This document shows, one piece after another, positions 16,318 through 32,362 of a stretch of DNA of 64,000 nt. Positions within the stretch are counted from its first letter, which is position 1. Every line of letters starts with the position of its first letter. The notes under the pieces were generated by a model that did no database searches, was not told the origin of the DNA, and saw only the letters and a program-made list of their open reading frames with translations. The position numbers and the translations under genes were made by a program. Source of the DNA: Oscillospiraceae bacterium (lineage in GTDB: Bacteria > Bacillota > Clostridia > Saccharofermentanales > Saccharofermentanaceae); assembly GCA_902780785.1 (NCBI GenBank), contig CACZGS010000010.1, positions 44,363 through 108,362 on the forward strand, read 5' to 3'.

Positions 16318-16381
16318 ATCCTCCGATTTTGCTTAATTCTTTGCCACTATTTTGCCTTTTTTGAATCTTAAAGTAAATATT

Positions 16382-16477
16382 GAGGGTGGTAAGATATGGT
16401 TGTTCAAAGTAATTGTTCCTTACTTCATAACACCCTCCTTAAGACACTGACACCCCCTCGTCAGTGTCTTTTATTTG
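16382..16477 (+). ncRNA. Candidate small RNA (two hairpins, C-rich loops, intrinsic terminator) with no upstream same-strand gene
   Basis: Hairpin 1 pairs GAGGGTG (16382-16388) with CACCCTC (16431-16437). Hairpin 2 pairs AAGACACTGA (16441-16450) with TCAGTGTCTT (16461-16470), has loop CACCCCCTCG, and is followed by TTATTTG. A possible promoter is TTGCCT-16-TAAATA at 16352-16379. Confidence 0.3.
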
Positions 16478-16544
16478 TGCATATGTAAATAAAATTTGCT
16501 AGTAAAAATAACAATAAAACCTAGTAAATAAAAGTGTCTTCTTA

Positions 16545-16573
16545 TTGATTATGTAAAAACAAGGTTGTAAAAT
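16545..16573 (+). promoter_or_regulatory. Candidate promoter of the zinc-ribbon/HD-like gene
   Basis: TTGATT (16545-16550), a 17-nt spacer, then TAAAAT (16568-16573). Confidence 0.4.
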
Positions 16574-16628
16574 AGTTTTAAATTATATTTGCGGTTTATC
16601 TTTGAGCCGCAAAACAGGAGGTCACAAC

Positions 16629-17471
16629 ATGAAGAAATGTCCCGATTGCGGTATGGTCATTGCCAATCAGGCTATCAGATGCCCTAAGTGTAAGTATACA
16701 TTCACATCAGCAGACGAGAGTGCAGGCGGTAACGATTCCGCTGCAGTTACTCCTCAGGCAGCAGCTGTTTCAGCAGCAGCTACAGGCAAGTCCGATAAGG
16801 TTGCCGGTATTATGCCGATGATCGAAGTAAACAAGGACAACGTTGATACTCTTTATGAGCAGCTCAAGGCAGCTATAGTTAAGAGAAAGACCGAATTCGA
16901 TCACTTCATCGATTTCCTCGAGAACAGAACATCCTGGCTTACAGCACCTGCAGAAGTTAAGGGTTCCCTCGCTTGCGAGAAGGGTCTCCTCATCAGAAGC
17001 GTTTCTGTTGCTAAGCAGCTCTTAAGAATCAAGGATACGATCATGCCTCAGCTCGACGAAGAGTCCGCTATCATCATCGCTCTCTTCCACGAAGTAGGTA
17101 AGGTTGGTATCGAGGGTAAGCCTCTCTTCATTCAGGATGAGACAAGTTCTCTCGGCGCTACATCCACATTGGGTCTTTCCTTCAGCAGCAGATTGTCAGG
17201 TGCTTCTTCAAGCTCCAACCCTACATACTCTATCAACAATAAGCTCGTTCACATGAACGTTGGCGTTAGATCCCTCTTCCTCGTTTCACAGTACATGCTG
17301 CTCTCAGACGACGAAGCTCAGGCTATCAGCTACGGTTCAGACGTTGAGCTTCTTAAGGGCAAGCTCTCACCTTATACACTTCTCCTCTCTACAGCTCTTC
17401 AGATGCAGAAGACGATCTATGAGGATTCCGATGTTGTATCAGGCTACAGCTTCACAGTAATCAATCCTTAA
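16629..17471 (+). CDS. Zinc-ribbon protein with a C-terminal degenerate HD-like domain (hypothetical)
   Basis: The start is at ATG 16629 behind AGGAGG. N-terminal CPDCG...CPKC zinc ribbon, an Ala/Ser linker, then an HD-like segment in which HEVGK replaces the usual HD.GK and upstream His positions are substituted. Confidence 0.6.
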   Translation: MKKCPDCGMVIANQAIRCPKCKYTFTSADESAGGNDSAAVTPQAAAVSAAATGKSDKVAGIMPMIEVNKDNVDTLYEQLKAAIVKRKTEFDHFIDFLENRTSWLTAPAEVKGSLACEKGLLIRSVSVAKQLLRIKDTIMPQLDEESAIIIALFHEVGKVGIEGKPLFIQDETSSLGATSTLGLSFSSRLSGASSSSNPTYSINNKLVHMNVGVRSLFLVSQYMLLSDDEAQAISYGSDVELLKGKLSPYTLLLSTALQMQKTIYEDSDVVSGYSFTVINP

Positions 17472-17494
17472 TTGATCTAATAAGCGTTTAATCG

Positions 17495-17529
17495 AAAACG
17501 GACTGTCATCTGACAGTCCGTTTTCTTTT
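17495..17529. terminator. Bidirectional rho-independent terminator between convergent genes
   Basis: CGGACTGTCA (17499-17508) pairs with TGACAGTCCG (17511-17520). It is flanked by GAAAA upstream and TTTTCTTTT downstream. Confidence 0.8.
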
Positions 17530-17560
17530 GTGTGCTGTATATCAGAGGAGTGATCTTTCT

Positions 17561-19417
17561 TTATACATCCTTTACCATGCTGAGGATCGCGGGGCGTATC
17601 CAGCGGTAATCGTTCTGATCGTAGTAGGTGCAGCATTCGTTTGTAAAATCGACTCTTATGATATCTCCTGAAGCATCCTTAAAATCGATGTATTCGACTT
17701 CATTGACCGCTACGGGTGTTATCAGATCGTCAGTCTTGATCTTCTTTGTCTCATCTGTGACCTTTCCGTCTCTTACGATCTTACCTTCCATGTCTCTTGC
17801 TGCTCTGAAAGTCGTTGACCATTCGAACTGACTGTAATTGTCAGCAGGGATCGCAAGTCCGTTCTTTGCTACCTTATAGTTTCTCGTGATAAGGAAAGGA
17901 TAATTATTTCCGTAATCCTCATAGCAGGAGAAAGACTTTGTGTCCTTTAATGTCCTAATAAGAAGGTTCTCAACCGTACCAACGTACTTTACCGAATCAT
18001 CAGTCAATTCATAAACATTCAGATCGCAGCCTCCGACAGGCTTTCTGACAGTAGTTACATAGATATATGCTTTGCCGTTTGCCTTAAGAAGATATGCGCT
18101 GCTCAAGGCATAACCGGAATCACCGTACTTTATATTGAGATCAAAGCTCTTTTTGCCGTTTGTGATCCTGAGCATATTATTGCCGAGTGTCTCGACACAC
18201 AATTTTCCATAGCATCCTTCTGCCCAGAAGCATTTGCTGCCGTCATTGAACTTCTCAATATAACCTTCAGACAGGTAATTAACTGAAGCTTTGAACTGGC
18301 TTACTTCAACTAACATGCTGCGGAGGGCCGTATAGATCCAGCGGTAATTGTTCTGATCGTAGTATTTGCAGCATTCATCAGTGAAATCCACTCTGATGGT
18401 GTTTTTATTGGCATCCTTGAGATCAATGTATTCAACTTCGTTGAGCCATGTGGGAGTAACACTTTCACCGGCCTTGATCGTCATCTTGGTATTTGTCTTT
18501 TTGCCGTTTGATACGAGATATCCTGACAGATCCCTGGCTGCGACAACCCTTACAGATCCGATATAGCTCATATTGTCTGCAGGTACGGGGAGTCCGTCTT
18601 TGCCGATCTTAAACTGCCTTTCGCTGCAGAACATTGCGCCGTCTGCATCGTATCCCTTGAAATTCTTCGTGTTGTCTATAGAAGGAGATACCGTGAAGTT
18701 TGTAAGGACAGTCATGCATGAGATGGAGTTCTCTTTTATCTCATATATATTTGTTTCGTTGTTGTTATTGCCGCGTACAACATCTACATAAAGATATGTC
18801 TTGTCGTTTTCCTTGATCAGATATGCGTAGGATACTCTTTCTGAACTGATACTGACCTGCCATAACTTGTTTCCTTCTGTCTCATAGCGGAGCGTGCCTG
18901 CGTTTACCGTGAAAGATACTTCGCCGTAATCACCTGATACCTTGTACTCTTTAACGTTGTCCTTGATATCAAAATGAATTACTGTTCCGTTCTTGATCTT
19001 CGAAAAGTCCCTCTTCTTACTGTCGTTTACCGGTACGGGAGTTGCTGTCGCCGGTGCCTTGGTAGGAGCTGCTGTTGTCTCTGCTGCAGTAGGTTCGGTA
19101 ACTTCGGGCTCTTCCGTTTCCTTGCTCTCTTCAGGTACGGATACTGAAGGTGTTATATCCGTATCAAAATCATCAGCCGGTAATTGGATAGCAGGATCTG
19201 TAATTACGTCTGCATTTACGCCCTGCTGATTGATCGATATACCCGAAGCCAGCGCTTCGTCATTGATCACTACTGTTCCTACAGGAGTTCCGTCTGCCAT
19301 CTTGATCTCTGCCGTGCAGCCGGAAGCCGTAACTGCGAGTGCGCCTGTAAGGATAACCGTTGCAAGTGCCGATCCTGTAATTCTGCCTCTCTTAATAGGG
19401 TTTGCTATAAACTTCAT
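17561..19417 (-). CDS. Lipoprotein L1 with two tandem copies of an unassigned ~230-aa domain (paralog of L2 and of the BlaR1-like sensor domain)
   Basis: I set the start at ATG 19417 (MKFIANPIKRGRITGS...) behind GGAGG. Signal peptide with lipobox VTASGC. Two repeats end ...EVEYIDLKDANKNTIRVDFTDECCKYYDQNNYRWIYTALRSM and ...EVEYIDFKDASGDIIRVDFTNECCTYYDQNDYRWIRPAILSM. Confidence 0.85.
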   Translation of the reverse strand: MKFIANPIKRGRITGSALATVILTGALAVTASGCTAEIKMADGTPVGTVVINDEALASGISINQQGVNADVITDPAIQLPADDFDTDITPSVSVPEESKETEEPEVTEPTAAETTAAPTKAPATATPVPVNDSKKRDFSKIKNGTVIHFDIKDNVKEYKVSGDYGEVSFTVNAGTLRYETEGNKLWQVSISSERVSYAYLIKENDKTYLYVDVVRGNNNNETNIYEIKENSISCMTVLTNFTVSPSIDNTKNFKGYDADGAMFCSERQFKIGKDGLPVPADNMSYIGSVRVVAARDLSGYLVSNGKKTNTKMTIKAGESVTPTWLNEVEYIDLKDANKNTIRVDFTDECCKYYDQNNYRWIYTALRSMLVEVSQFKASVNYLSEGYIEKFNDGSKCFWAEGCYGKLCVETLGNNMLRITNGKKSFDLNIKYGDSGYALSSAYLLKANGKAYIYVTTVRKPVGGCDLNVYELTDDSVKYVGTVENLLIRTLKDTKSFSCYEDYGNNYPFLITRNYKVAKNGLAIPADNYSQFEWSTTFRAARDMEGKIVRDGKVTDETKKIKTDDLITPVAVNEVEYIDFKDASGDIIRVDFTNECCTYYDQNDYRWIRPAILSMVKDV

Positions 19418-19547
19418 TTTTAATTTCCTCCGTATGATAACAGTTGTTCTACAGGCGTAGATTCTACAAACGTAGAACAACCTTACGAGCGTCATTCTAC
19501 ATTTGTAGAAAACGGATGTCAATAGTTTTTTCTACATTTGTAGAATT
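19379..19547 (-). repeat. Copy 1 of a near-identical ~170-bp promoter/leader/signal-peptide cassette (partner at 29597-29765)
   Basis: Base-by-base comparison with 29597-29765 shows 2 mismatches (CTACAGGCG versus CTATAGACG). Identity falls to about 75-85 percent further into the coding region, down to about 19230 and 29447. Confidence 0.9.
19462..19545 (-). promoter_or_regulatory. L1 promoter with three BlaI/MecI/CopY-type operators
   Basis: The minus strand reads TTCTACAAATGTAGAA-N7-TTGACA-17 nt-TAGAAT. Operators lie at 19530-19545 (upstream of -35), 19495-19510 (overlapping the spacer and -10) and 19462-19477 (in the leader). Each is a perfect 16-bp palindrome with a TACAnnnnTGTA core. Confidence 0.75.
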
Positions 19548-19564
19548 TATTTAAAACCCGGGAA

Positions 19565-19597
19565 TCAAAAAGGCGCTGCCTTTTGGAGCAACGCCTA
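19565..19597 (-). terminator. Terminator after the pilus operon
   Basis: The minus-strand hairpin AGGCGTTGC...GCAGCGCCT is followed by TTTTTG. Confidence 0.6.
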
Positions 19598-19621
19598 ACT
19601 GAGTCTATATAACCGTCGGTA

Positions 19622-20239
19622 TCAAGCTTTTCTGCATCTGACTGTAAGACGGCTTTTACCGCCATAGGTACAGGTATAAAGCGAGAGATCCCAGTCACCC
19701 GTTATCATCTCTTCAACAGCCGTGCCGTCCAGCACTTCTATTACTTCCACGATATATCTCGTTACCCTTCCGTTCATGTCGGTAAAGAACACCTTGTCTC
19801 CGGGAGACAGCTTCTTCAGTTTCCCGAACCCGCTTTTGTAATTGTGTCCTGCAATCACCAGATCATCAGTATATGGAGATCCGTAGTAACGGCATGCCGA
19901 CTTTCTGAGATAGTCATCATTCCATGTATCAAAGACCGCCATTTCAAGTTCGATTGCGGGGACGGTAAGATATCCGTCATAAGGGCAGTCATCGATCACT
20001 GCAACTTCCAGTTCAGAATCATAAAGAGCAGGAGACCTGCTGCCGTCCGTGTCGTTTACGGGATCATCTGCGGTCCTTTGCGAGATCTCAGCCTTAATAT
20101 CTTCTACGATCATCCCCGTTTCTTTCTTCAGATTGTTGCTGAGCACCATGTTTGTAACAATAAGAATAACAGCTCCGCCTATAAGGACAGAGCCGGTTAT
20201 AAGAAATATGTTTCCGATTGTACGGTGCTTATTTTTCAT
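19622..20239 (-). CDS. Small sortase (single N-terminal TM; housekeeping/class-D-like) at the end of the pilus operon
   Basis: 205 aa with the catalytic triad context IAGHNY (His), LYTCTYGG (Cys) and RLTVRC (Arg). It overlaps the upstream gene by 11 nt. Confidence 0.85.
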   Translation of the reverse strand: MKNKHRTIGNIFLITGSVLIGGAVILIVTNMVLSNNLKKETGMIVEDIKAEISQRTADDPVNDTDGSRSPALYDSELEVAVIDDCPYDGYLTVPAIELEMAVFDTWNDDYLRKSACRYYGSPYTDDLVIAGHNYKSGFGKLKKLSPGDKVFFTDMNGRVTRYIVEVIEVLDGTAVEEMITGDWDLSLYTCTYGGKSRLTVRCRKA

Positions 20240-21131
20240 CTGCTTTTCTGCCGGTCAGCCTGATCACTATTCCTGCACTCACCAGGAACGAACCGGAAAA
20301 CAGGAGTACCGGAACAGGCCAGTCGATCTGTCCCGTCTGGATGAGTTTCTCTGTATTTGTCACCGTAAATTCGTATCCTTCGGAAGAATATGTTGCCGTA
20401 TAGTTCTTTGGAATATCTGTCTCTTCGACAGACCACTTTTTGCTTGCATCAAGCTTTTCCCATGTATGCTTCCATGAGTTTTGTCCGCTGAGCCTTACCG
20501 TATCATAGATGCCGTCTTCATTAATAAGCCTTACACTTACATAGTCAGGCCGGTTCAGGCCGTTATCGTTCCAGATTTTTTTAACAGAGACATCAACAGG
20601 CGGCAGATATTCGATCTTGGGCTCGGCAACGCCGTCATATATCCAGACCAGTGAATCGTAATCATAGTGCGGAAGGAAATAAAGGAAAGGAACAAAAGAT
20701 GTAAATCCTTCCGGAAGGCTTTTAGCCGTTATCAGATACACTCCTGCCGTAAGCCCGTCGAAAACAACACCGCCATCTTCACCGGATCTTTCAGAGATAC
20801 CGGTGATGTTATTGTTTCCGGCATATTTGACGAGATCGTCCACCATCGACTGGGTAATGTTGTCATCAAGATCCAGTCTTGTCTCGGCAAAATCATCGTC
20901 GAGCACATAATCGATCCCTCTGGATGTAAATGTGGCTTTTGCAATAAGATAAGCCGTTACTTCGGCACCTGCAGCGGTCCTGCCGTTCTCACCGGGTGTC
21001 TTAAGAGTCATTGAAAGGCTTAAGTTTCTGCCGGGATCAGGCTTTTCAGCAGCGAGTACTCTTGCAGGGAAAAAGAAAAGAATCGCAGTCAATAATAGAG
21101 CTGCCCAGGCAGTTTTATTTTTTCTTGCCAT
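20229..21131 (-). CDS. Cna-B-domain minor/basal pilin with a non-canonical sorting signal (LIQTG)
   Basis: 300 aa with a signal peptide (...ARVLAAEK) and a Cna-B-like module VSVKKIWNDNGLNRPDYVSVRLI. The C-terminus reads KLIQTGQIDWPVPVLLFSGSFLVSAGIVIRLTGRK (motif, hydrophobic stretch, basic tail). Confidence 0.8.
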   Translation of the reverse strand: MARKNKTAWAALLLTAILFFFPARVLAAEKPDPGRNLSLSMTLKTPGENGRTAAGAEVTAYLIAKATFTSRGIDYVLDDDFAETRLDLDDNITQSMVDDLVKYAGNNNITGISERSGEDGGVVFDGLTAGVYLITAKSLPEGFTSFVPFLYFLPHYDYDSLVWIYDGVAEPKIEYLPPVDVSVKKIWNDNGLNRPDYVSVRLINEDGIYDTVRLSGQNSWKHTWEKLDASKKWSVEETDIPKNYTATYSSEGYEFTVTNTEKLIQTGQIDWPVPVLLFSGSFLVSAGIVIRLTGRKADEK

Positions 21132-21942
21132 GTTCTTTCCTCCTTTCTGCGATGAACGTGATCACCACTATCGCAATAAATGCCGGCACGGCCATAACAG
21201 TCGCCACAGTAATACTGTTTACCTTAAATGCCTCGCCTGACACGAATATGCCGGGTGAGCTTTTCGCGCTTCCCACTCTGACGCCTCTTACAAGCAGACG
21301 GTGGGTATTGATACCGTAAGGTGTGCAGGTGACAAGTGTGCAGTAATCCTTGCCGTCATCAATGGTCAGATTAGATACATCCTCCGGAAGCACCGTCCTG
21401 ATCTGATCGACTTCGTAAGTCAATACCCTGTCAAGCACGGTGATCCTGAACCTGTCTCCCACTTCCATCTTATCCAGATCCGTAAAGAGCCTTGCCGACG
21501 GAAGACCTCTGTGACCGGACAGGACACAGTGTGTTCCCGGGCCTCCGACCGGAAGCGAAGAGCCTTCGATATGGCCTACGCCTATCTGAAGTACTCCGTC
21601 ATCGACTCCGTGATAGACCGGGAGTTCGACTCCGATCTTATCTATGTCGATATAGCCCATTATTCCGGTGCCGGTTATATTGAGTGTATCGTTATATCCC
21701 GTTACTCCTGACGGATTGAAAAACGAAGCCCTGCCTTCCCTTAAATATTCATTGTACTGTTCGGCAGAAACTATCATCTGCTCGCGCCTTTCTATGTCTG
21801 TGTTGACATAGACCTCGTTGTACCTGGATATTTCGGCCGCAGAATGCTTTGAGTTGATAAAATCGCTGACGGTAGGATAAAGGAGCAGTCCAAGGCCTCC
21901 CGCGATCAGTACAACTATCAAAACATTAAGCAGCTTATTCAT
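21115..21942 (-). CDS. srtC: Class C (pilin-polymerising) sortase
   Basis: 275 aa with N- and C-terminal TM segments. Motifs: VLSGHRGLP (His), TLVTCTPYGINTHRLLVRG (Cys/Arg). Confidence 0.9.
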   Translation of the reverse strand: MNKLLNVLIVVLIAGGLGLLLYPTVSDFINSKHSAAEISRYNEVYVNTDIERREQMIVSAEQYNEYLREGRASFFNPSGVTGYNDTLNITGTGIMGYIDIDKIGVELPVYHGVDDGVLQIGVGHIEGSSLPVGGPGTHCVLSGHRGLPSARLFTDLDKMEVGDRFRITVLDRVLTYEVDQIRTVLPEDVSNLTIDDGKDYCTLVTCTPYGINTHRLLVRGVRVGSAKSSPGIFVSGEAFKVNSITVATVMAVPAFIAIVVITFIAERRKEHGKKK

Positions 21943-21954
21943 ATTCCAAGTTTA

Positions 21955-23697
21955 TTATGCGTTATCAGATCCGGTCTTCTTCTTTATTACGACCAGAGCT
22001 GCACCGGCTGCGAGAAGAGCAGCACCTGCGGCATAGAAACCAACTGTACCGATGCCGCCCGTCTCAGGAAGAGATGAGGTCTTCTTGTTTACGACTTCAA
22101 GGACCACATACTGATCTCCCTGGGCTACTGTTGTGTCAGTGCCGTCGATCTTGTATGTCCATACAGGCTTCTTGTTCGTGCTGTCATAAGCAAATGTGAT
22201 CTCAAGACTGTGAGGTGTCTTGTCTAATGTATAACCGTCAGGTGCCTTAGTCTCCTTGATGGTATAAGTTCCGGCTCCAAGTCCCGTAAGAACAAGCTCA
22301 CCGTTATCATCTACTTCGATAGTTGTATCCGTAGCATCGATATTCTCGACAATAACGCTGTCCCTTTCGACGGGAACATATTTTGTATCTGTCGAATCAT
22401 ACTTATTCTGCGTCTGAGCCGTAGGTGCCGTATCGGTATATGTGCCATCCTTTAACTTGTAGAAAGTACCTGTTGCGCTTACTTCATACTCTGTCTTGGT
22501 TACGATGACCTGCTTGCTCTGAGTTCCTTCAACATGGAATTCTGCTCCGACAAGGGGATTTCCATCCTTATCGATCTTCTTAACCTTGGCACCTGTAGTG
22601 TAAGTTACTGTCTGAATGTCAGGAGACTTACCCGTAACATCACCGTTGCCGGGTTTGTCGCTGGTATATGTGTGTGAAGGGTCATTTGAATAAGTAAGGC
22701 CGGCAGTATTGGGGTTGCCTGCATCAGTTGTTACAGCCTTCTCATTTAGCTTTGCCTTATATGTAACAGTTATATCCTCACCGATATAATCTGTATCCGT
22801 ACCATAATCAAGGAAATCCTTAAATACGATCTCAATGGAATTGGTTGCCGAATCGAATGTGAAATCATAATCACCGGCAGTTAATGTCTTAGAGCCGACC
22901 GTGATAACAGGCTTGTTGTCTGTTGCACTTGTTCCGATGTAATCAAAACCTTCGCTCAAAGTATCGTTCATTACGAAGCAATACTTGTTATAACCCTTAT
23001 CAGTCAGGTCAGGAACCGTAGAAGAGAGCTTAAATGTGATCTCATCGCCTACGCTTGCCTCGTTGTACTTCTGCTCATTGCCTTCGACTACGATATTCTT
23101 ATCCAAAGAAGGTACTACTTCCTTGGTGTTGATCGTAAGGTTTGTTGCCTGGTTTACGACCATGAGCATAAATTTGGACTCTGCACCGTCAACTACGGGC
23201 GAGGATGTTATCTCGTCTTTTACAAGGTAGTATCCGAACCCGGAAGCAAGAGTTACATCTTTCTGTGTATCGGATGCACCAAGCTCTGCTGTCGTAACAC
23301 TTGGATCAGATGATGCGACCGTCTTTCCTGCAATGAATGTCGCGAATCTGTCAACGAGTTCTGTGTCGTTATTGGTGTTAGCTTCCTCCAATACTTCAAG
23401 AAGAGCGTTAAGATCATCGCAGCTGTCAAATCCGTCAACAGCCTTAAGAGCTGTATAGAAAGCCGCATCAGGCTCAGTTACGCCTTCGCCCCATTCAATG
23501 TCATAAAGATCATCATTATCATCAACTTTTACGGAGAAGATCTGATAGAACTCATAACTATGGGCAGACTTATCATTGCTGTCACTCTTTTTGATCGTTA
23601 CTTTGGGATTCTCAGCGGCAAGCGCCATGGTTCCGATCATCATTACCATGACTGTTGCTACGATCGCTGATATCGTTTTTTTCATCAGTTTCATCAT
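21955..23697 (-). CDS. Major (backbone) pilin, LPXTG-anchored
   Basis: I set the start at ATG 23697 (MMKLMKKTISAIV...). Features: pilin-motif-like VVPSLDKN, E-box-like YTIKETKAPDGY, sorting signal LPETGG followed by a hydrophobic stretch and KKKTG. Confidence 0.85.
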   Translation of the reverse strand: MMKLMKKTISAIVATVMVMMIGTMALAAENPKVTIKKSDSNDKSAHSYEFYQIFSVKVDDNDDLYDIEWGEGVTEPDAAFYTALKAVDGFDSCDDLNALLEVLEEANTNNDTELVDRFATFIAGKTVASSDPSVTTAELGASDTQKDVTLASGFGYYLVKDEITSSPVVDGAESKFMLMVVNQATNLTINTKEVVPSLDKNIVVEGNEQKYNEASVGDEITFKLSSTVPDLTDKGYNKYCFVMNDTLSEGFDYIGTSATDNKPVITVGSKTLTAGDYDFTFDSATNSIEIVFKDFLDYGTDTDYIGEDITVTYKAKLNEKAVTTDAGNPNTAGLTYSNDPSHTYTSDKPGNGDVTGKSPDIQTVTYTTGAKVKKIDKDGNPLVGAEFHVEGTQSKQVIVTKTEYEVSATGTFYKLKDGTYTDTAPTAQTQNKYDSTDTKYVPVERDSVIVENIDATDTTIEVDDNGELVLTGLGAGTYTIKETKAPDGYTLDKTPHSLEITFAYDSTNKKPVWTYKIDGTDTTVAQGDQYVVLEVVNKKTSSLPETGGIGTVGFYAAGAALLAAGAALVVIKKKTGSDNA

Positions 23698-23744
23698 TTT
23701 GTTGTTCCTTTCATTTATAATTTTTCTTTTTTTGATTTCATAAT

Positions 23745-26700
23745 TCATTTCGCATATCCGCCTCCTTCGCACCGCCTTTTAATCAGCAGGATAAGTGCGC
23801 CTCCGATCATGAGCGTTCCTGCGGCTATGAACGGAGCTATGCCCGGCCCGCCTGTATTTGGCAGGCTGAAGATAACACTGTTTGTAAACTTAAATGTGTA
23901 GTTGTTGTTAAACTCCTTAACATCAGCCATGAGCATGCCGCCGGTGTTGGGGATCTCCGTTACTTCCACCGTGACATCGTATACGGAGTTGTCGTATCTG
24001 ATTCCCGCCTGGTGATCATCTTTTTCTCTGATATAGAATCTATATATTCCGGGATGATTGAACTGGAGCCTCTCGAAAAGCACCTTTCCCTCTGCGTTAT
24101 TTACTTCAGTGACTACCTTATCAGTATTCCTGTCCACGAGCTCGAAAGTGAAATCCCCGCCACGGAGGACACCGTTTGTAAGTTCCTTCGTAGCACCAAA
24201 CTGCACCGATGCAGTATTGGCATGAACTGTAAAGTCAAGGCCGGAATGGTTAGGACACTTGTTATATGCATCGATTACATATCTCTTATCAAGTTTGAAA
24301 ACCTGGCTGTCAATCCTTTCGACGATATCATCAAGCTCTCCGTCCGTAACCGTTACAACACCGTTTACGGTCTTCGTATATTTGCGGTTCGGATAATCAG
24401 GCGTATATACAACAGTCTCCTCAGCCATGATTTCCCACTCGCCTGTTGTACTGTTGTATTTATACTTTTCGATCTTTGTCGGAGCTATCTGAAGACTGAC
24501 ATCGAAAACAACATGATCAGTATCCTTATAACGGAAATGTTTGTTGTTCGTGATATAGTCATCATGATACTTGGAAGTAAGTTCGTACTGGGAATCTCCC
24601 GGGCCGAATCTCGGATCAGACCAGTAATCATCGGAATCAAAGCCGTTGTCCGGAAGAGGCGTGGCATTTGTGATCTGCCAGTTTTGATCAGACTGGGTCT
24701 CGAAGAACGGCGTGGGATTGCCGTTTTCATCATATATCCTGCAGCTGTTAACGCCCGAAACATATGACTGATACTCGGTAACCGTCTTTATCATTCCGGT
24801 ATCATCGCCAAGTTCAAAACTTACGGAAGTATAAACACCGCCGTCTGCGATCTCGATATCCGCATGATCCAATATCTCATAGTAATCAGTATTCTCATTG
24901 TGATAATCGTAATTTACGACTACGTTTATCCTCTTCATTACCCCGTTTTGCGTCCAAAAACTGACCTGCTGGGTATTATTCCCGCTGGTGTAATTTTCAG
25001 CACGGCAGGTAACGCTCCTTACACCGTATGCTTCTTCGCTCTCATTTTCGAAAGCCGAGAGTAAACCTCTGTCCTGACCGCCTTCGATATAAGGCCAGTC
25101 ATAGTCTTCACCGTATCTGTTGGGAGTTCCTTTAAAGACTATCGTGTCACCGTAATTGACATAAACGGTGTCACCGTCATTATGCTGATCAAAATCAATA
25201 ACATCTGTCTCGCTATCTCTTCTGATTACACGGATCGAGAAATCCTGATCGAGATCCGTGTTGCCACGGTATAAAGATACCGCACAGCTTCCGCCGTTGG
25301 GCTGTGAGGAAATACCGGTTATAGTGGCACGTACTTCGGTAGGAGTGGAGCTTGTCTCATTGATACTTACGACTTCGCCCATCCAGTTTAAATTTTCATA
25401 GAACCTGATATGAAGGTTCTCGCCATTGGCATCTGCCGGATCTATCCTGCCTATAAGTTCTAACGTATCTCCTTCCATCAATACATAAGGGAAATTCGGG
25501 GAATTCTTAATAGTGTCACCTGCAAGATCCGTTTCGGGATTTACGTTGACGGCATTATCAAGATATGCGTGAACTTTGTCTTTGTCTTTTTCACCGGTTG
25601 CGGTAACAACATAGATGGAGAATCCGTCAGTGGTAAATGCAGCTTCCGAAGATGAGACCTCAGCTCCTTCCACTACGGAAACCTTCTGGCCATCGATATG
25701 AAGAAGATCATAGGTCTGACCTTCTGGCTGTCTGGATTCAGGGATCTTTATGCTTACATCAACTGTTGTGCCTTCTGCGGGCTCCACTTTATTGCCTTCA
25801 GCATCAAAAAACGAGATATCAACGGCAACCATGCCCTTGATCTCTTTGCCGTCTCTGACAGTCTGCTCTGCAAGGGCCTTTACCTTGCTGTTTGCAATAT
25901 CAGATGCGTTCATTGTCGTTCCTTCCGGGAACGCACCATAAGGTGCTGACGCATTTACGGTTATTCCTGAACCGGTAACCGCTTCAAATTCCAAAGGATT
26001 CTTAACAGGATCTTCCGGTGCATCCGCTCCGTCCTGTACATCATCCGTATTTTCCGTGCTTTCCGTATTCTCTCCGGCATCTTCAGATACGGCGGGCTCC
26101 GTCTCTTCAGTGGTCTCAGTAGTTTCAGCCGGCTCAGTTGTTTCCTCTGTTTCTTCTGCAGGTTCACTCTCATTTGAATCAAGCCTGTTTACGGAAACAT
26201 AACCATAAAGAACCGCATCGGAGATCCGGTAAGACTTAACGGCTACAACGCCGTCTATATCGCCTTCCATAACACTTATGTCGTTGTCATTAATGTTTAT
26301 TATGATGCCTGTTAAGTCGCACTTGCCGTCCCCGTCATTATCAATAAGGATAAGATCTCCCATCTTGGGCATTACGGTAAAGTCCTTAATAAGAAGTCCT
26401 GCTTCGTCAAGTTTTACCTGCCATGCCCAGCAGCCGGAACCGTAAGGGATATCCTTTTCGGAGATCTTTGAATAGTGCAGGCAGAATGAAACGAACATTA
26501 CATTCCAGTCACCCGTGGGATTTCCGTACCATGCACCGTATCTTGTATATCCGTCCGGTTCTTCTTTGTAATCAAGCTGTGAAGAAGCAGTGTTCACGAG
26601 GCTTTGAGCCTTCTTTGCAACAGGTTTGGGGAGCTTTGACTCCCACTCTGACTGACATTCCTTTTTAGAGACTTCAGCAGGCCTGCAGCTGTCAGTATGG

Positions 26701-26996
26701 GTATGTTCATCAAGACCGCATGTCAATACGCGGTTATAGCAATTCTCATCATGAATATGCTCAGGATCTGTTTCTGAGCATATCAGCTGCTCCTCATAGC
26801 ATTCGTCAGAATGAGTGTGCTCTGAAAGACCGCATGTATATTCATCGGCAAGAGCCACACCGGTATTCCTGAGAGTCCAGAAGACATTGCCTGAAAGTAC
26901 AATGGACACTGCAAGGAACAAAGCCATCGAGCGGTTTCTCGCCTGATGCCTCCTGTTAAGCCAATTTATGTAACCCTCAATACGTTCCTTTTTCAC
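23745..26996 (-). CDS. Large LPXTG-anchored pilus tip adhesin candidate
   Basis: 1083 aa. N-terminal CGL.EHTH.D.C repeats, then a CHAP/NlpC-P60-like segment, an acidic Glu/Thr linker, a C-terminal pilin isopeptide-type domain (FELVDRNTDKVV...YRFYIREKDD), and the sorting signal LPNTGG. Confidence 0.8.
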   Translation of the reverse strand: MKKERIEGYINWLNRRHQARNRSMALFLAVSIVLSGNVFWTLRNTGVALADEYTCGLSEHTHSDECYEEQLICSETDPEHIHDENCYNRVLTCGLDEHTHTDSCRPAEVSKKECQSEWESKLPKPVAKKAQSLVNTASSQLDYKEEPDGYTRYGAWYGNPTGDWNVMFVSFCLHYSKISEKDIPYGSGCWAWQVKLDEAGLLIKDFTVMPKMGDLILIDNDGDGKCDLTGIIININDNDISVMEGDIDGVVAVKSYRISDAVLYGYVSVNRLDSNESEPAEETEETTEPAETTETTEETEPAVSEDAGENTESTENTDDVQDGADAPEDPVKNPLEFEAVTGSGITVNASAPYGAFPEGTTMNASDIANSKVKALAEQTVRDGKEIKGMVAVDISFFDAEGNKVEPAEGTTVDVSIKIPESRQPEGQTYDLLHIDGQKVSVVEGAEVSSSEAAFTTDGFSIYVVTATGEKDKDKVHAYLDNAVNVNPETDLAGDTIKNSPNFPYVLMEGDTLELIGRIDPADANGENLHIRFYENLNWMGEVVSINETSSTPTEVRATITGISSQPNGGSCAVSLYRGNTDLDQDFSIRVIRRDSETDVIDFDQHNDGDTVYVNYGDTIVFKGTPNRYGEDYDWPYIEGGQDRGLLSAFENESEEAYGVRSVTCRAENYTSGNNTQQVSFWTQNGVMKRINVVVNYDYHNENTDYYEILDHADIEIADGGVYTSVSFELGDDTGMIKTVTEYQSYVSGVNSCRIYDENGNPTPFFETQSDQNWQITNATPLPDNGFDSDDYWSDPRFGPGDSQYELTSKYHDDYITNNKHFRYKDTDHVVFDVSLQIAPTKIEKYKYNSTTGEWEIMAEETVVYTPDYPNRKYTKTVNGVVTVTDGELDDIVERIDSQVFKLDKRYVIDAYNKCPNHSGLDFTVHANTASVQFGATKELTNGVLRGGDFTFELVDRNTDKVVTEVNNAEGKVLFERLQFNHPGIYRFYIREKDDHQAGIRYDNSVYDVTVEVTEIPNTGGMLMADVKEFNNNYTFKFTNSVIFSLPNTGGPGIAPFIAAGTLMIGGALILLIKRRCEGGGYAK

Positions 26997-27000
26997 TTTT

Positions 27001-27633
27001 TCATCCCAAAGGCCATACCTTGCCTAATACCTTGCCGACGATCTGATCTTTTTCCACGCATCCGATAACGGAGCTTCTGCTGTCTATGGAAGTATCTCTT
27101 TGGTCTCCCATCACGAAAAATCTTCCTTCAGGAACTGTATAAGGAAAATCAATATCACATTCACCCAGACTCTTTTCGCTTACATAAGGCTCATCTATGA
27201 GTTCGCCGTTAATGTAAACATTTCCCTTTTCATCGATATCCACGGAATCTCCGGAAATGGCGATTACACGTTTAATAAGCAGTTTGTTTTGCCATGCAAC
27301 ACAGCAGAGCTGTCCTGTACGGTAATCGCCGGCATGAAGAAGAACCAGTACGTCGCCGTCAGAAAGCGTCGGCTCCATGCTGTTTCCGGACACCTGGATC
27401 ACCGGCAGAAGATATGTCGACAGTAAAACGGCAACAGCTGCAACTACAGCCAGCAATCCGACTGCAGTAAACGTTGCACGCCTTATCCTTGCGCGTTTTC
27501 TTAGTCTTTTCCGTTCCTCAGTAACTTCTTTCGGATCGAGTCTTTTGCGTGACGGATCTTGTTCATTCATCATGTTATAAACAACATCCACTAACTCTTT
27601 CCGGCTTAAGTTCTTCAGGTTTTCCTTTTTCAT
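27001..27633 (-). CDS. Signal peptidase I (S26), pilus-operon associated
   Basis: 210 aa. GNSMEPTL (catalytic Ser), LIKRVIAISGD (catalytic Lys) and GDQRDTSIDSR are all present. It is the first gene of the pilus operon. Confidence 0.88.
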   Translation of the reverse strand: MKKENLKNLSRKELVDVVYNMMNEQDPSRKRLDPKEVTEERKRLRKRARIRRATFTAVGLLAVVAAVAVLLSTYLLPVIQVSGNSMEPTLSDGDVLVLLHAGDYRTGQLCCVAWQNKLLIKRVIAISGDSVDIDEKGNVYINGELIDEPYVSEKSLGECDIDFPYTVPEGRFFVMGDQRDTSIDSRSSVIGCVEKDQIVGKVLGKVWPLG

Positions 27634-27773
27634 TTCACTCTTCCCGGACAGTCTTCCTGAATATGATATTTTGATTATAGAATCCTGATTTGCCCGAGAT
27701 TTATTACCGTTCGGTTACTGGATAACAATTAATCGACCCTAAATTTCATTCTTGTTATCAATTACGCAGAAAT

Positions 27774-27798
27774 GAAAAAAGCTGTCTGAAACAGCTTT
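27774..27798 (-). terminator. Terminator after lipoprotein L2
   Basis: The minus-strand hairpin AAAGCTGTTTCAGACAGCTTT is followed by TTTTC. Confidence 0.7.
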
Positions 27799-27834
27799 CT
27801 TCCCCCGGTGTTATTTTGTTGCCGGATAATGATC

Positions 27835-29634
27835 TTATAATGGTTCGGCAAGGCTTAACAAAGCCTTATATACCCAGTGATTGTCATTCTCGTCATAGAA
27901 CTCGTTAAGCAAAGGTTCGGAGCTTACTCTGATGACGGTACCTGTAACACTTTCTGTAATATCCGTGTATGTTACTTCGTTAAACTCGGTGAAATTGATC
28001 TGACTGCCGGCCTTGATCGTATACTTCTCGGTTGTTGCTTTTCCGTTCTTGACAACATAACCTGTCAGGTCCTTGGCTGCTTTTACTTTGACGCTTAAAT
28101 TTACATAGCATACTGTATCTGCGATCACCGGCATGCCGTTAGCTGATGCCTTATAGTATCTGGTGATGCCGATCATTCCGTTCATGCCGTCATTCTCATA
28201 GCAAATGAACTTGTCGGCACTTGATGGATTTGATTCAAGATACATGCCTTCATGGTGACCGATAAACTTGATCGAGCTGTCATTTACTTCGTAAACATTG
28301 ATGTCACGAAGATCTCCGTCCATGCAGGATGTTACGTAGATAAATGCCTTGCCGTTGGTCTTAACAAGGTAAGTGCTGCCGATCCTCAATCCTGAATTAT
28401 CAGTGTGTACGGGAAGAACATAAGCATGTCTGTTATACATGATCTGGATCTTCTGACTGTCTATATTATTCTCAACTACAAATGAGCCGTATGCTGATTC
28501 AAGTACACGCTTTTTGGATTCTGCCTGGAAGGTCATTATACGTCCGTTGCCCAACGCTCCAACGGTTCCGGCCTTCTCTTCATCAAAATCCTTGGCGATC
28601 TCGAAAATACTGAAGAAAGCGTTGGTTTTGTTGTTCTTACCGAACATATCAAAGTAATACTTACTGTTAAGTCTGATGACAGTACCGTTTTGTAATGCTA
28701 CATCGATATAATTTTCCATATCTGTTCCGATAAGTCTAACAACATCACCTCTATTGACGGTCTTTAATTCACTGGTTACTTTTCCGTTTCTTACGGCCTG
28801 ACCGCTGTAATCCACCTTGATCCTTGAAGGAGATGTGTTATAAAGGCTGTGCACATTATTTGCAAGCACCGGCATGCCGTTATTACCGACTTTATAATAT
28901 CCGTGCATTACGAACATGTAATTACGTCCGCAATGTTCATAGCAGGAAAACGAATCGATAGATTCAATCGAATCAGTATAAAGATTCTCATAACATCCGA
29001 CATACTTTACGGATTCATCATCAAGAGAATAAACATTGGTCTCGCAAATATCTCCGCCGTGCATTGCGCAGATGTAGAGGTATGCCTGACCGTCTTTCTT
29101 CAACAGGAATGCTTCGCATATTCCGAGTTCAGAGTTCCTGATGGGGAGCTCAAAGCCGTGATCTTCGACCTGGATCCATACTTTTGCTGAAGATTTAGAT
29201 AAGGGATAGAAAAACATATACCCCCAGCCTTCATTATCAGTATATCTTACATCATCGTTGCCTCTTCTTAACTTTAAGACAGAACCGTCCTTAACGGATG
29301 CTATCGCACCGGGCTTCTGAGTTTCATAAGCCTTAGGGGTTGTCACAGGAATATCACTCTCTTGTGTATCTGTTATCTCATCGAAATCATCGTCCGGTAA
29401 AACAACCGTGGGATCAATAATATCATCTGCATTTACACCCTGCTGCTTTACCGTAATGCTTGAAGCAAGCGCTTCATCATTGATAACGACATTTCCGATG
29501 GGGGTTCCGTCTGCCATCTTGATCTCTGCCGTGCATCCGGAAGCCGTGACCGCAATGGCACTTGAAAGGATAACAGCTGCAAGTGCTGATCCGTTGATTC
29601 TGCCTCTCTTAATAGGGTTTGCTATAAACTTCAT
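27835..29634 (-). CDS. Lipoprotein L2, paralog of L1 (two divergent copies of the same ~230-aa domain)
   Basis: The start is at ATG 29634 behind GGAGG. The N-terminal ~60 aa are nearly identical to L1 (MKFIANPIKRGRINGSALA...TASGCTAEIKMADGTPIG). The domain signature is retained (e.g. NVYEVNDSSIKFIG, FICYENDG, YYKASANGMPVIAD, ...YDENDNHWVYKALLSL). Confidence 0.85.
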   Translation of the reverse strand: MKFIANPIKRGRINGSALAAVILSSAIAVTASGCTAEIKMADGTPIGNVVINDEALASSITVKQQGVNADDIIDPTVVLPDDDFDEITDTQESDIPVTTPKAYETQKPGAIASVKDGSVLKLRRGNDDVRYTDNEGWGYMFFYPLSKSSAKVWIQVEDHGFELPIRNSELGICEAFLLKKDGQAYLYICAMHGGDICETNVYSLDDESVKYVGCYENLYTDSIESIDSFSCYEHCGRNYMFVMHGYYKVGNNGMPVLANNVHSLYNTSPSRIKVDYSGQAVRNGKVTSELKTVNRGDVVRLIGTDMENYIDVALQNGTVIRLNSKYYFDMFGKNNKTNAFFSIFEIAKDFDEEKAGTVGALGNGRIMTFQAESKKRVLESAYGSFVVENNIDSQKIQIMYNRHAYVLPVHTDNSGLRIGSTYLVKTNGKAFIYVTSCMDGDLRDINVYEVNDSSIKFIGHHEGMYLESNPSSADKFICYENDGMNGMIGITRYYKASANGMPVIADTVCYVNLSVKVKAAKDLTGYVVKNGKATTEKYTIKAGSQINFTEFNEVTYTDITESVTGTVIRVSSEPLLNEFYDENDNHWVYKALLSLAEPL

Positions 29635-29765
29635 TTTTAATTTCCTCCGTATGATAACAGTTGTTCTATAGACGTAGATTCTACAAACGTAGAACAACCT
29701 TACGAGCGTCATTCTACATTTGTAGAAAACGGATGTCAATAGTTTTTTCTACATTTGTAGAATAT
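29597..29765 (-). repeat. Copy 2 of the ~170-bp promoter/leader cassette (partner at 19379-19547)
   Basis: See copy 1. The two copies are direct repeats 10.2 kb apart that bracket the L2 body and the whole pilus operon. Confidence 0.9.
29679..29762 (-). promoter_or_regulatory. L2 promoter with three BlaI-type operators
   Basis: Same architecture as L1. Operators lie at 29747-29762, 29712-29727 and 29679-29694. The -35 TTGACA is the complement of 29734-29739, and the -10 TAGAAT overlaps the middle operator. Confidence 0.75.
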
Positions 29766-29790
29766 TTTTTGAATTCTTTTCCAGGGCACG

Positions 29791-29842: not shown

Positions 29843-32362
29843 TTATGCAGGTTCGAACCAGTCCACTATGGCATTGTAGACCCAGCGGTAGTTATTGCTG
29901 TCGTAGAATCTGTCTTTCTGGTCTTTGAAGTTTACCTGGAGCACTGTGCCGTCTTCTTTTTGAATTATGATAACGTCCTTTTCATCTGTTTTTACCGGAG
30001 TTACTTTCTCACCTACATATATGTAGATTAAATTGTTTTTATAGATGGTGCCGTTTATCATCAGATAGCCGCACAGATCAACCTTGCTCTTTAAAGGCAT
30101 CTTCACGTTGAAGCATGTATACATCAGGTAGGTATCAGGTGCCGGCATTCCTGTTGTTTTGGACATCGAGTAATTTCTCCTCACATCAACGACCGCATTT
30201 TCCCCATAGTTTTCAATGATCCAGAATGTTCTGGGATTATCGACTGCTCTTTCGAATGTGGCGTTATTAACCGCTCCTTTGAAGAAAACACCGTTATCAA
30301 AGACATTGTATGCACAGATCTGGTTCCCGCCTTCAACGTAGAACTGAATAAAGATGTTCGCCTTTCCGTAATCTTTCAGCAGGTAGATTCCTCCGGTGCT
30401 CGTTGAAGGAATTGCATATTCAAATGACTTGTCCTTAATAGTGAAGCGCACCACTTTCTCCGGGAGGATCCTGCAAACGATACTTCCAAATTCTCCTGAG
30501 ACAGTAAAAGTGGAATTGTTGCTCTCGTTCACAAACGGAATGACCGTAAAATCCTTTATCTTGCTTATCGAAAGCAGCTTATCCTCTGCAGGTACCGTTG
30601 TTTCAACAGGTGTTGTGGTCTCAGAAGCAGTAGCAGCCGTTGTCTCTTCCGTCGTCTCTGTTGTCTCGGAAACAGCCGGGTCATCCGAGATATTTGACGG
30701 GATCTTGGTTCCGCCGGAAGTCTTCTGGCCATTCAGGATCTCAATAGCCTTATCAGGACCGACTTTGCCGGTTATCACTTCGGCTTCGCGGCTTCTGAAA
30801 AACTCTTTATATTCATTCTGCGTGACACTCTTTCCGTCTATTGAAAACGAAGTTCCCTCAAAATAGCCGTCAGCTTTAGGCTTTGCACCTGTCATAAGAT
30901 CATTCATGGAATAGAGCTTAGCTTCAGCCAGCTCACCCTGGGTCAGTATAACGTGATGAATAATAAAGTCTTCAAAAGGAACGTAGTGATAAGACTCACT
31001 TGAATCCATATAAACACCGTCCTCAAAGACAGGCAGTACCTTTCCGTTTCTGAATGTATAGAGACTTACCAGATCGTTCGCTCCCTCTGTCGGTCTTTCC
31101 GTAACAAGCTCAGGGATCAGATCATCATCAACATAGATAAATGCATACTTATAAAACAGCTTGTTGCCCTGATTGTCATATCCGGTCTTTCTGATCAGTT
31201 CAATATACGGATCGATAAATGCGGAACTCCATCTCCTGGAGTTTGTTGTCTCGGCTGTGGTCTCGGACGGTTCAGATTCTGTAGTCTCAGACGCAATAAC
31301 AGCACTCTCTTCGGGCTCTGCGGGCTTCTCTCTTACCCACGGCTGGTGATCAATAGAAGATGCGGATACCAGAAGTGAGAAGACAAGCGTAACGCAGATG
31401 GAAGCTATCTGGATCTCTCTTGACGATATCTTATGGGACAGGAGATTCTTGATCCTCATCTTGGTCTCCATGCCTCCGAAGCTCAGGCCGCTGAATGCAG
31501 TGCTCTGCATGAATGCGCCCTTATTGTCGTCAGCTGCATGTCTTACGAGGGACTTACAGTATTCCTTTACCATCGAAAGGTTGAAATTGCTCGTGGTCTC
31601 CTCATCAACACGCATTTCGATATCTGCGCAGAGCATGAAGAAGGCGAGCCATACGAGCGGATTGAACCAGTGAATGCAGAGCACGATGTAGCTTAAGAAC
31701 TTTGTAAGTCCGTCCTTATTCTTTATGTGCGTCCACTCATGATTAAGGACATATTCGCGCTCGTCGTCATCCATGTTGATCGGGAAAAAGATCTTCGGAT
31801 TGATGATGCCTACGACAAAAGGCGAATCAATATCATTTGCCATGTAATATCTTCCGTCGAAGGAGCGAGAACTCCATCTCGCCCTTGAATAGAAGATCGC
31901 ATATCTTATTGCTGAGAAAATCAGCATGCCAACCATAACGGTGAGCCAGATATAAGGAAGAATGGTCTTAAAGGTAACCTTCGGAGCCTGCTCTGTTACG
32001 GCGGGCGCAGGCACTTGCTCTGCAGTTCCGTTATCAATAACCGCAATGTCGGATTCAGGTGTCTGCTCTATGACCTCAGGCATGGTATCAACCACCGCGA
32101 TCTCTCTTAATCTCGTCTCCGGATCGTAGGTCGTGGGCTCTGCCGACACTGTCTTCGGCTGCATGAACTTGCCGAAGTTAAGGATGCTCGTCGGCGAATT
32201 GAAATTGAACGGCAGTACCAGCCTTAACGCAACTATGATCCAGAAAAGGATCATGACCTTCTTGGGGCATTTCTTGAAGATCAGTCTGAACAACAGCACG
32301 ACCAGTATGGCAATACTGCCGTACAGGCTCATCTCCAATACTTTGGAAAATATATAACTCAT
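29843..32362 (-). CDS. BlaR1/MecR1-family M56 sensor-protease with a non-PBP C-terminal sensor domain
   Basis: 839 aa. Multi-TM N-terminus typical of M56 and the zinc motif NHEWTHIKNKD. The Thr/Glu-rich linkers are extracytoplasmic. The last ~235 aa are homologous to the L1/L2 repeat (…YGKANIFIQFYV…NVFDNGVFFKG…YSMSKTTGMPAPD…VLQVNFKDQKDRFYDSNNYRWVYNAIVDW). Confidence 0.85.
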   Translation of the reverse strand: MSYIFSKVLEMSLYGSIAILVVLLFRLIFKKCPKKVMILFWIIVALRLVLPFNFNSPTSILNFGKFMQPKTVSAEPTTYDPETRLREIAVVDTMPEVIEQTPESDIAVIDNGTAEQVPAPAVTEQAPKVTFKTILPYIWLTVMVGMLIFSAIRYAIFYSRARWSSRSFDGRYYMANDIDSPFVVGIINPKIFFPINMDDDEREYVLNHEWTHIKNKDGLTKFLSYIVLCIHWFNPLVWLAFFMLCADIEMRVDEETTSNFNLSMVKEYCKSLVRHAADDNKGAFMQSTAFSGLSFGGMETKMRIKNLLSHKISSREIQIASICVTLVFSLLVSASSIDHQPWVREKPAEPEESAVIASETTESEPSETTAETTNSRRWSSAFIDPYIELIRKTGYDNQGNKLFYKYAFIYVDDDLIPELVTERPTEGANDLVSLYTFRNGKVLPVFEDGVYMDSSESYHYVPFEDFIIHHVILTQGELAEAKLYSMNDLMTGAKPKADGYFEGTSFSIDGKSVTQNEYKEFFRSREAEVITGKVGPDKAIEILNGQKTSGGTKIPSNISDDPAVSETTETTEETTAATASETTTPVETTVPAEDKLLSISKIKDFTVIPFVNESNNSTFTVSGEFGSIVCRILPEKVVRFTIKDKSFEYAIPSTSTGGIYLLKDYGKANIFIQFYVEGGNQICAYNVFDNGVFFKGAVNNATFERAVDNPRTFWIIENYGENAVVDVRRNYSMSKTTGMPAPDTYLMYTCFNVKMPLKSKVDLCGYLMINGTIYKNNLIYIYVGEKVTPVKTDEKDVIIIQKEDGTVLQVNFKDQKDRFYDSNNYRWVYNAIVDWFEPA

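Follow-up and report, generated by a model that had tools for sequence, protein, structure and literature searches.

The 64,000-nucleotide (nt) stretch analyzed here, referred to as the window, comprises positions 44,363 to 108,362 of the forward strand of contig CACZGS010000010.1 (Oscillospiraceae bacterium, assembly GCA_902780785.1). On its minus strand, between 17.5 and 32.8 kb, it carries a module in which a BlaR1-type membrane receptor and two lipoproteins contain copies of the same domain of ~235 amino acids (aa). In the order of transcription, the genes are a blaI-type repressor gene (32388-32759, 123 aa), the gene of an M56 (BlaR1-type) membrane zinc-protease transducer (29843-32362, 839 aa), the lipoprotein gene L2 (27835-29634, 599 aa), a run of genes for an S26 signal peptidase, three LPXTG pilins and two sortases (19622-27633), and the lipoprotein gene L1 (17561-19417, 618 aa), which starts with an ATG at 19417 and has a GGAGG ribosome-binding site 8 nt upstream. 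The 3′ end of blaI lies 26 nt upstream of the M56 start. The reading frames of L1, L2 and the M56 protein are those described in an earlier note on this DNA made from the sequence alone, and its coordinates, motifs and copy count are borne out.

That note had proposed that the domain is present five times, twice each in L1 and L2 and once at the C-terminus of the M56 protein. All five copies lie on the minus strand. Those of the lipoproteins were delimited by hidden Markov model (HMM) envelopes and BLASTP: L1a (aa 139-372, 18302-19003), L1b (aa 380-618, 17564-18280), L2a (aa 112-350, 28585-29301) and L2b (aa 359-599, 27838-28560). The sensor copy of the M56 protein, M56c (aa ~601-839, 29846-30562), was identified by BLASTP, hhalign and HMM search. 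The five pieces are homologous: all ten pairwise BLASTP comparisons are significant (E 2.6e-11 to 5.4e-48, 27-39% identity), the closest pair being L1a and L1b (39% identity, E 5e-48) and the weakest L2a and M56c (E 2.6e-11). When the window was translated in all six frames and searched with an HMM, exactly these five copies and none besides were returned. The landmark motifs quoted in the note are found at the C-terminal ends of L1a (NEVEYIDLKDANKNTIRVDFTDECCKYYDQNNYRWIY), L1b (NEVEYIDFKDASGDIIRVDFTNECCTYYDQNDYRWIR) and the M56 protein (DRFYDSNNYRWVYNAIVDWFEPA). The relationship of the M56 C-terminus to the lipoprotein domains, which the note had named as one place where its claim could fail, is confirmed at the profile-profile level: the hhalign alignment between a profile of nine sensor C-termini and one of 18 lipoprotein domains spans 231 columns, at a probability of 100% and an E-value of 5.5e-61.

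The M56 protein and BlaI are members of the Peptidase M56/BlaR1-type and BlaI/MecI families, respectively. The former matches Pfam Peptidase_M56 over aa 7-306 with 142.3 bits (cut-off 31, E 2.4e-41). It has five hydrophobic segments (aa 11-29, 36-54, 134-152, 226-244 and 319-337), with the HExxH motif, HEWTH at aa 208, located between the third and the fourth, and together these features place aa ~338-839 outside the cell. A BlaR1/MecR1 proper, that is, a β-lactam sensor, was rejected: the NCBIfam model blaR1_generic, with a cut-off of 400 bits, scores 87.5 and aligns to the protease part alone (aa 175-334), and searches of Pfam-A and NCBIfam found no penicillin-binding (class-D-like) sensor domain at the C-terminus. 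The ectodomain also contains a "mid" part (aa ~372-560, 30683-31249, minus strand) that has no Pfam match and was modeled poorly, with a predicted local distance difference test score (pLDDT) below 50. The mid part is optional, being absent from the related proteins P0022, P0024 and P0047; in these and in P0015, all short M56 forms of 589-692 aa, the last membrane segment is followed by a linker and then by the C-terminal copy. Since the mid ectodomain is not found in every M56 sensor of the clade, the C-terminal copy is the constant sensor element. Many M56 proteins in Clostridia (hundreds) carry unassigned ectodomains, so that a novel sensor alone is unsurprising. BlaI matches Pfam Penicillinase_R with 80.6 bits (cut-off 22.6, E 1.4e-22). 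Its dipeptide Asn86-Phe87, within EKNFKGS, is comparable to the cleavage site N101-F102 of Staphylococcus aureus BlaI (PMC1935004) and would probably be where the repressor is cut.

Three promoters in the module carry putative operators. The blaI-M56 promoter (32784-32812, minus strand) reads TTGACA-17-TAGAAT (match 11/12), with one palindromic operator TTCTACACTTGTAGAA (32786-32799) overlapping its -10 element. The ~140 nt 5′ of L1 and of L2 are nearly identical to each other, and each contains four TTCTACAnnTGTAGAA-type palindromes around a TTGACA-17-TAGAAT promoter. In the L2 promoter region (29665-29761, minus strand; promoter 29739-29711) the operators are at 29748-61, 29713-26, 29680-93 and 29665-78, and a terminator-like hairpin is found on its 5′ side (29815-29795, minus strand). 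In the L1 promoter region (19448-19544, minus strand; promoter 19522-19494), likewise preceded by a terminator-like hairpin (19596-19571, minus strand), the four TCTACAnnTGTAGA candidate sites are at 19531-44, 19496-09, 19463-76 and 19448-61. The exact core TACANNTGTA (TACAnnTGTA), published for BlaI/MecI/CopY (PMC1935004; PMC7253601), occurs five times in the 64 kb, always at the blaI, L2 or L1 promoter, against 0.45 expected. When at most one mismatch to TCTACNNNTGTAGA is allowed, nine sites are found, at the same three promoters, against 0.8 expected. The three best sigma-70 matches between 17300 and 33000 are also the blaI, L2 and L1 promoters, each with its -10 element inside an operator. 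Because the putative operators are located only at these promoters, the predicted regulon in the window consists of blaI-M56, L2 and L1, in agreement with the earlier suggestion that the receptor shares its domain with the lipoproteins it appears to control.

Eighteen related loci were collected, eight from a genome scan and ten from a metagenome scan, of which 17 (eight and nine, respectively) have enough flanking sequence for comparison. The eight genome loci all belong to rumen or gut Oscillospiraceae, namely Saccharofermentans bins and the "Ruminococcaceae bacterium" isolates YAD3003 and AB4001. The arrangement of blaI, an M56 gene ending in the domain, three to four operators and one to three lipoprotein genes is conserved in 8/8 genomes and 9/9 metagenome contigs. 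The neighborhood survey asked for in the earlier note was meant to look for a recurring association with M56/BlaI and with pilus loci; the first is present in all 17 loci, while the second did not hold up, as none of the 18 loci contains pilus, sortase or S26 genes.

This bears on the idea that L1 and L2 have a part in assembling the pilus or in adhesion and that BlaI/M56 regulates the pilus. It is suggested by the window itself, where the S26 peptidase, pilin and sortase genes lie between L2 and L1, but it is largely refuted and has very little chance of being correct. In the nearest relative, locus L004 (~86-92% nucleotide identity), the M56 gene is directly followed by L1, and the ~9.9-kb block at 19557-29425 (the L2 body, the S26 signal peptidase, three pilins and two sortases) is absent as a whole. 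In the window this block is bounded by a direct repeat of ~390 bp (19163-19556 and 29380-29773) consisting of promoter and 5′ coding sequence, as expected for recombinational insertion or deletion. No operator was found in front of the pilus genes, and a hairpin with a T-run separates them from L2. Since L004 lacks the block, the block is bounded by a direct repeat and pilus genes are missing from all 18 loci, the pilus association is incidental, an accident of the window genome, and the block is outside the conserved module.

We also noticed that the contigs of L017 and L020 end just after the lipoprotein gene, and that several assemblies break directly after the first lipoprotein gene. These breaks are consistent with the repeated promoter and 5′ coding sequences confusing assembly, and the copy number of lipoprotein genes is probably under-counted in the metagenome bins. 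Within the block, the pilus tip protein (23745-26996, minus strand, 1083 aa) carries at its N-terminus a repeat rich in Cys and His, C-G-L-x-E-H-T-H-(S/T)-D-x-C, which occurs twice with a related HIHDENCY in between, and a segment resembling a CHAP/NlpC-type amidase; its Pfam matches are an FctA domain and an LPXTG anchor only. The opposite strand encodes, two genes upstream of blaI, a 48-aa SCIFF ranthipeptide precursor together with its radical-SAM maturase (34270-35909). This proximity is probably plain synteny, because all eight relatives have the maturase at 91-95% identity.

The description of the domain as unassigned stands in the libraries searched. Pfam-A gave only noise for the L1 and L2 domain (E of 0.01 or higher, under the cut-offs), NCBIfam had no match for L1 and L2, and neither the PDB sequences nor the phage-defence and phage-protein libraries PADLOC and PHROGs matched the domain; Foldseek searches of the domain models against PDB and BFVD returned nothing at E ≤ 1e-3. 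The AlphaFold2 model of L1b is confident (pLDDT 86.9, predicted template-modeling score 0.81); its ~19 β-strands form successive four-stranded meanders, and two helices make up the C-terminal end. In a separate model of the M56 ectodomain, the sensor copy (pLDDT 80-93) shows the same strand pattern. The top Foldseek matches are β-propellers, including prolyl oligopeptidase, the clathrin N-terminal domain and DDB1, with best E-values of 0.013 and 0.0017 and TM-scores of at most 0.36. Judging from the models, the fold appears to be propeller-like in its building blocks, without a solved counterpart among the structures searched. The columns conserved across the family are Gly, Pro and aromatic residues together with one Arg and one Asp, with the signature Y-x-V-x-x-(D/N)-G-M-P-V; nothing resembling a catalytic residue set was found among them.

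The weak structural neighbors, all of them β-propellers and including lectins, sialidases and glycoside hydrolases, could be taken to mean that the domain is lectin-like or carbohydrate-binding, with the M56 protein sensing a plant or host glycan and inducing binders of the same polymer. The hosts are saccharolytic rumen Oscillospiraceae, and there is a precedent in the logic of cellulosomal carbohydrate-binding modules and of the RsgI anti-sigma-I receptors of Clostridium thermocellum, also a member of the Clostridia, where the carbohydrate-binding-module or PA14 sensor outside the cell is of the same kind as domains of the induced secreted or surface proteins, and where receptor and induced carbohydrate-binding-module proteins share both domain type and ligand (PMC6852018, PMC10328401). 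RsgI differs from the present receptor in its use of autoproteolysis, RseP and a sigma factor, and in having known carbohydrate-binding folds and polysaccharide ligands. A glycan sensor is nonetheless improbable in our opinion: none of the Foldseek scores is significant, the Pfam search matched no carbohydrate-binding-module family, the conserved module contains no glycoside hydrolase, transporter or sugar-utilization gene, and the sequences are only 24-50% identical between genomes where neighboring genes are 80-99% identical, unlike what would be expected for a fixed polysaccharide.

L1 and L2 have a common layout of signal peptide, lipobox, a short conserved module after the Cys, linker, and two copies of the domain. 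In both, a hydrophobic segment at the N-terminus leads to the lipobox TASG-C at aa 30-34; the linker of L1 is Thr/Pro/Glu-rich (aa ~95-135). The post-Cys module, C-T-x-E-(I/V/F)-(K/S)-x-x-D-G-x-x-(I/V)-x-x-(V/L)-(V/I), occupies aa 34-60 of L1 (window ~19240-19318) and the corresponding place in L2. It is common to the two-domain, single-domain and "extra" lipoproteins of the clade and may be a retention or sorting element. The extra lipoprotein, of ~400 aa, is encoded under the same operators in L008 (8005-9201), L009 (8169-9392) and L010 (8311-9492), and also in L018 (~5422), L021 (~9634) and, as the second lipoprotein, L023/L024. It has the same N-terminal post-Cys module and a different unassigned C-terminal domain with the motif YIDCGNDGxPELL...YYIIKEFNGKLYI. 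The possibility that this domain matches the M56 mid domain was rejected (weak BLASTP E-value of 1e-4, hhalign probability of 1%). Because L1 and L2 contain no enzyme or transporter domain and no conserved catalytic residues, only the domain discussed here, these predicted effectors most likely act by binding. A functional model for such a role, by analogy, is offered by the LanI immunity lipoproteins NisI and SpaI, surface lipoproteins made of two similar, linker-joined, β-rich domains that protect by binding an antimicrobial peptide (PMC4828448). The comparison is an analogy only, as no sequence or fold similarity was found, the NisI domains are of ~110 aa, and that system is under two-component regulation.

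Word-indexed protein searches gave one match for a single domain and two for a 38-sequence profile, so that HMMER had to be run exhaustively over 1.84 billion cluster representatives to find the wider family. The family is rare: this search identified 300 proteins at E ≤ 1e-3, 30 of them at E ≤ 1e-30. The best 150 of the 300 include 12 two-domain lipoproteins resembling L1 and L2, 12 M56 proteins with one C-terminal copy each, and 111 proteins with a lipobox-like N-terminus, among them single-domain lipoproteins of 310-450 aa. A scan of metagenome contigs for single-domain lipoproteins gave no match, nor did a scan of viral contigs. The weaker matches are lipoproteins of 480-640 aa that align only at profile positions ~60-215. 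Among 85 distant relatives scanned, DUF3298 is present in 67 and a PdaC domain precedes the shared core in 61. Pfam-A finds neither PdaC nor DUF3298 in L1, L2 or the M56 protein, and what these have in common with the PdaC/DUF3298 lipoproteins is the core of ~150 aa only (profile positions 60-215).

The PdaC/DUF3298 module is the lysozyme-binding ectodomain of RsiV (PMC5014341). In this anti-sigma-V factor (DUF4163/PdaC plus DUF3298), as is proposed for the M56 protein, an extracytoplasmic receptor domain responds to a protein from a host or competitor by setting off proteolytic signaling; the factor differs from the window proteins in having the two modules that they lack. The modules occur in wall-related proteins as well, and the sole strongly conserved motif of the family, the GMP loop, is common to the sensors, the lipoproteins and the distant PdaC/DUF3298 lipoproteins. 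The loop might accordingly be read as binding a conserved component, or a fragment, of the bacterium's own wall, so that the M56 protein would report wall damage, much as BlaR1 reports a cell-wall-directed insult, while the lipoproteins would shield or repair and the variable surfaces would reflect exposure. We consider such envelope surveillance unlikely, because Pfam-A gives no match to wall-binding families (SH3b, LysM, PGB), no wall-modifying enzyme is in the regulon, and the conserved residues, mostly Gly, Pro and aromatics, are maybe purely structural.

The amino-acid identities between the window and the other genomes fall steeply from the flanking genes (65-99%, or 80-99% except for one FAD protein at 65-84%) and BlaI (80-94%) to the M56 membrane/protease part (61-90%), the L1 domains (38-50%), the M56 mid domain (32-43%) and the M56 sensor copy (24-31%), the last three ranges leaving out L004, where the values are 94-100% owing to a recombination tract. 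The ectodomains diverge far faster than the neighboring genes, and they are mosaic. The tract shared with L004 (RUG11004) has 96-100% nucleotide identity over a background of ~85-88% and corresponds to window positions 16360-19357 and 29948-31147. It spans the M56 mid and C-terminal ectodomains, L1 and a downstream 289-aa zinc-ribbon gene, and in the window it is split by the 10-kb block. It indicates recent recombination and looks as if either the tract was imported and split afterwards or L004 underwent a deletion. L007 and L008 are near-identical except in the second lipoprotein domain, where the synonymous divergence (dS) is 0.65 compared with 0.03-0.09 elsewhere and the ratio of nonsynonymous to synonymous divergence (dN/dS) is 0.24; here a single domain has had its allele replaced. 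Positive selection could not be demonstrated, since this dN/dS comes with a locally raised dS and looks like the import of a divergent allele. In a neighbor-joining tree of 27 copies, the sensor, lipoprotein "a" and lipoprotein "b" copies form separate clades, and concerted evolution or gene conversion between sensors and lipoproteins of the same genome is not seen.

One distant M56 protein, P0045 (locus L012), has a different neighborhood. Its blaI-M56 pair is directly downstream of a cluster (987-5428) of six tandem genes for peptides of 38-68 aa with a double-glycine leader (M-F-x-x-L-N-E-K-E-L-x-x-V-N-G-G, then FYYVP...), followed by a C39-peptidase ABC exporter and an AprE/HlyD-type protein. 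The cluster is class II bacteriocin-like, with an apparently undescribed peptide family. No paralogous lipoprotein gene was found adjoining the P0045 gene, and the domain occurs in none of 119 other M56 homologs of this sensor.

BlaI/BlaR1 is the textbook antibiotic sensor that works by proteolysis, and in BlaR1/MecR1 the sensor domain is homologous to the induced penicillin-binding effectors. The module described here is like BlaR1-BlaI and MecR1-MecI of S. aureus and Bacillus licheniformis in combining an M56 protease with HExxH, an extracellular C-terminal sensor and an adjacent winged-helix BlaI, and also in its TACAnnTGTA operators overlapping promoters, its autoregulation and its effectors related to the sensor domain. 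It differs in that the sensor is not penicillin-binding or class-D-like, the effectors are two-domain lipoproteins without a recognizable enzyme, there are four operators per effector promoter and an extra mid ectodomain, and the genes follow the order blaI, M56, effector on one strand. M56/BlaI pairs that do not sense β-lactams are also represented by the atypical BlaIR systems of Mycobacterium tuberculosis and M. abscessus and by PvmSR of Pseudomonas aeruginosa (bioRxiv 10.64898/2026.08.03.742534), and these proteins have no ectodomain at all, in contrast to the large folded ectodomain of the window M56 protein with paralogs in its predicted regulon. The earlier note had called the sharing of a domain between receptor and effectors unusual; the sharing is real, while "unusual" is an overstatement given the precedents BlaR1/MecR1 and RsgI. 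What is notable is the combination of sensor-effector paralogy, clean operator logic and hypervariability.

The explanation we favor, though tentatively and at slightly less than even confidence, is a BlaI/BlaR1-type proteolytic module in which the penicillin-binding sensor of BlaR1 has been replaced by the ~235-aa domain and which induces surface binder or decoy lipoproteins. As part of this explanation, and held just as tentatively, the domain would be a previously uncatalogued, all-β, propeller-like, non-enzymatic binding domain. An extracellular ligand would bind the C-terminal ectodomain of the M56 protein, its cytoplasmic zinc-protease domain would turn active, and BlaI would be inactivated, probably by the cut at Asn86-Phe87. 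Three tightly repressed promoters, those of the blaI-M56 operon itself, L2 and L1, would then open. The induced, membrane-anchored L1 and L2 would each display two tandem sensor-type domains on a long flexible linker. At the cell surface they would most likely work as decoys, shields or sequestering proteins that bind ligand of the same class. As sensor and effectors have the domain in common, they probably recognize the same ligand; in the two known precedents with a shared domain, BlaR1/MecR1 and RsgI, the ligand is shared too. As for the ligand itself, the presence of four operators at each effector promoter, the rapid, mosaic evolution of the ectodomains and the bacteriocin-like neighborhood of the distant M56 protein point to a variable biological antagonist (a bacteriocin or some other secreted protein or peptide, perhaps a phage protein) and not to a fixed small molecule. 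The fusion of the domain core to the PdaC/DUF3298 module in distant relatives is a further lead to a protein or peptide ligand.

Several observations weigh against this explanation. The Foldseek searches of PDB and BFVD gave no fold match with a functional hint on the ligand, and the bacteriocin neighborhood is a single locus with an operator at blaI only. In the tree, sensor copies cluster together and not with the lipoproteins of their own genomes. The sensors of L017 and L020 are 95% and 83% identical to that of the window, while their lipoprotein is only ~42% identical to L1. These combinations and the clades of the tree show that sensor and effector alleles reassort, and a strictly matched specificity is not evident. 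Together with the dN/dS of 0.24 in the sole informative (unsaturated) pair, below 1 and with a locally raised dS, reassortment counts against a tightly matched arms race.

The same data bear on a homotypic feedback, in which the lipoprotein domains would pair with the sensor domain so that the M56 protein monitors its own lipoproteins and signals upon their loss, damage or titration. The presence of the same domain on both sides would fit this well, the tandem copies in the lipoproteins suggest that copies can pack together, and the circuit is autoregulated. Pairing partners would, however, hardly be expected from near-identical sensors that occur with such dissimilar lipoproteins, from sensor and lipoprotein copies that do not co-cluster within genomes, or from P0045, which has no adjoining paralogous lipoprotein, and we therefore give this feedback only a small chance.

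Our preferred explanation, a ligand-responsive protease receptor inducing surface binders, can be extended to a more specific and distinctly less probable proposal, which we regard as doubtful though above the glycan, envelope and feedback alternatives. It would be an inducible surface immunity in which the receptor and its decoy lipoproteins are made from one hypervariable, propeller-like domain, with alleles exchanged domain by domain through recombination among strains, and which detects and neutralizes rapidly evolving protein or peptide antagonists, for example bacteriocins or phage receptor-binding proteins. If true, this would be surface immunity of an unrecognized kind in Gram-positive anaerobes, a protein-level counterpart of β-lactam sensing and resistance.

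The domain constitutes a new family, so far absent from Pfam, with ~300 cluster representatives, and it ties the sensors of rumen Oscillospiraceae to a wider set of RsiV-like Firmicute lipoproteins. The clearly defined operators and promoters and the two isolate hosts, YAD3003 and AB4001, make the module a tractable example in which the signal is experimentally approachable. Since paralogs of the sensor are abundant and soluble in its own regulon, the lipoproteins could be used as bait for the ligand.

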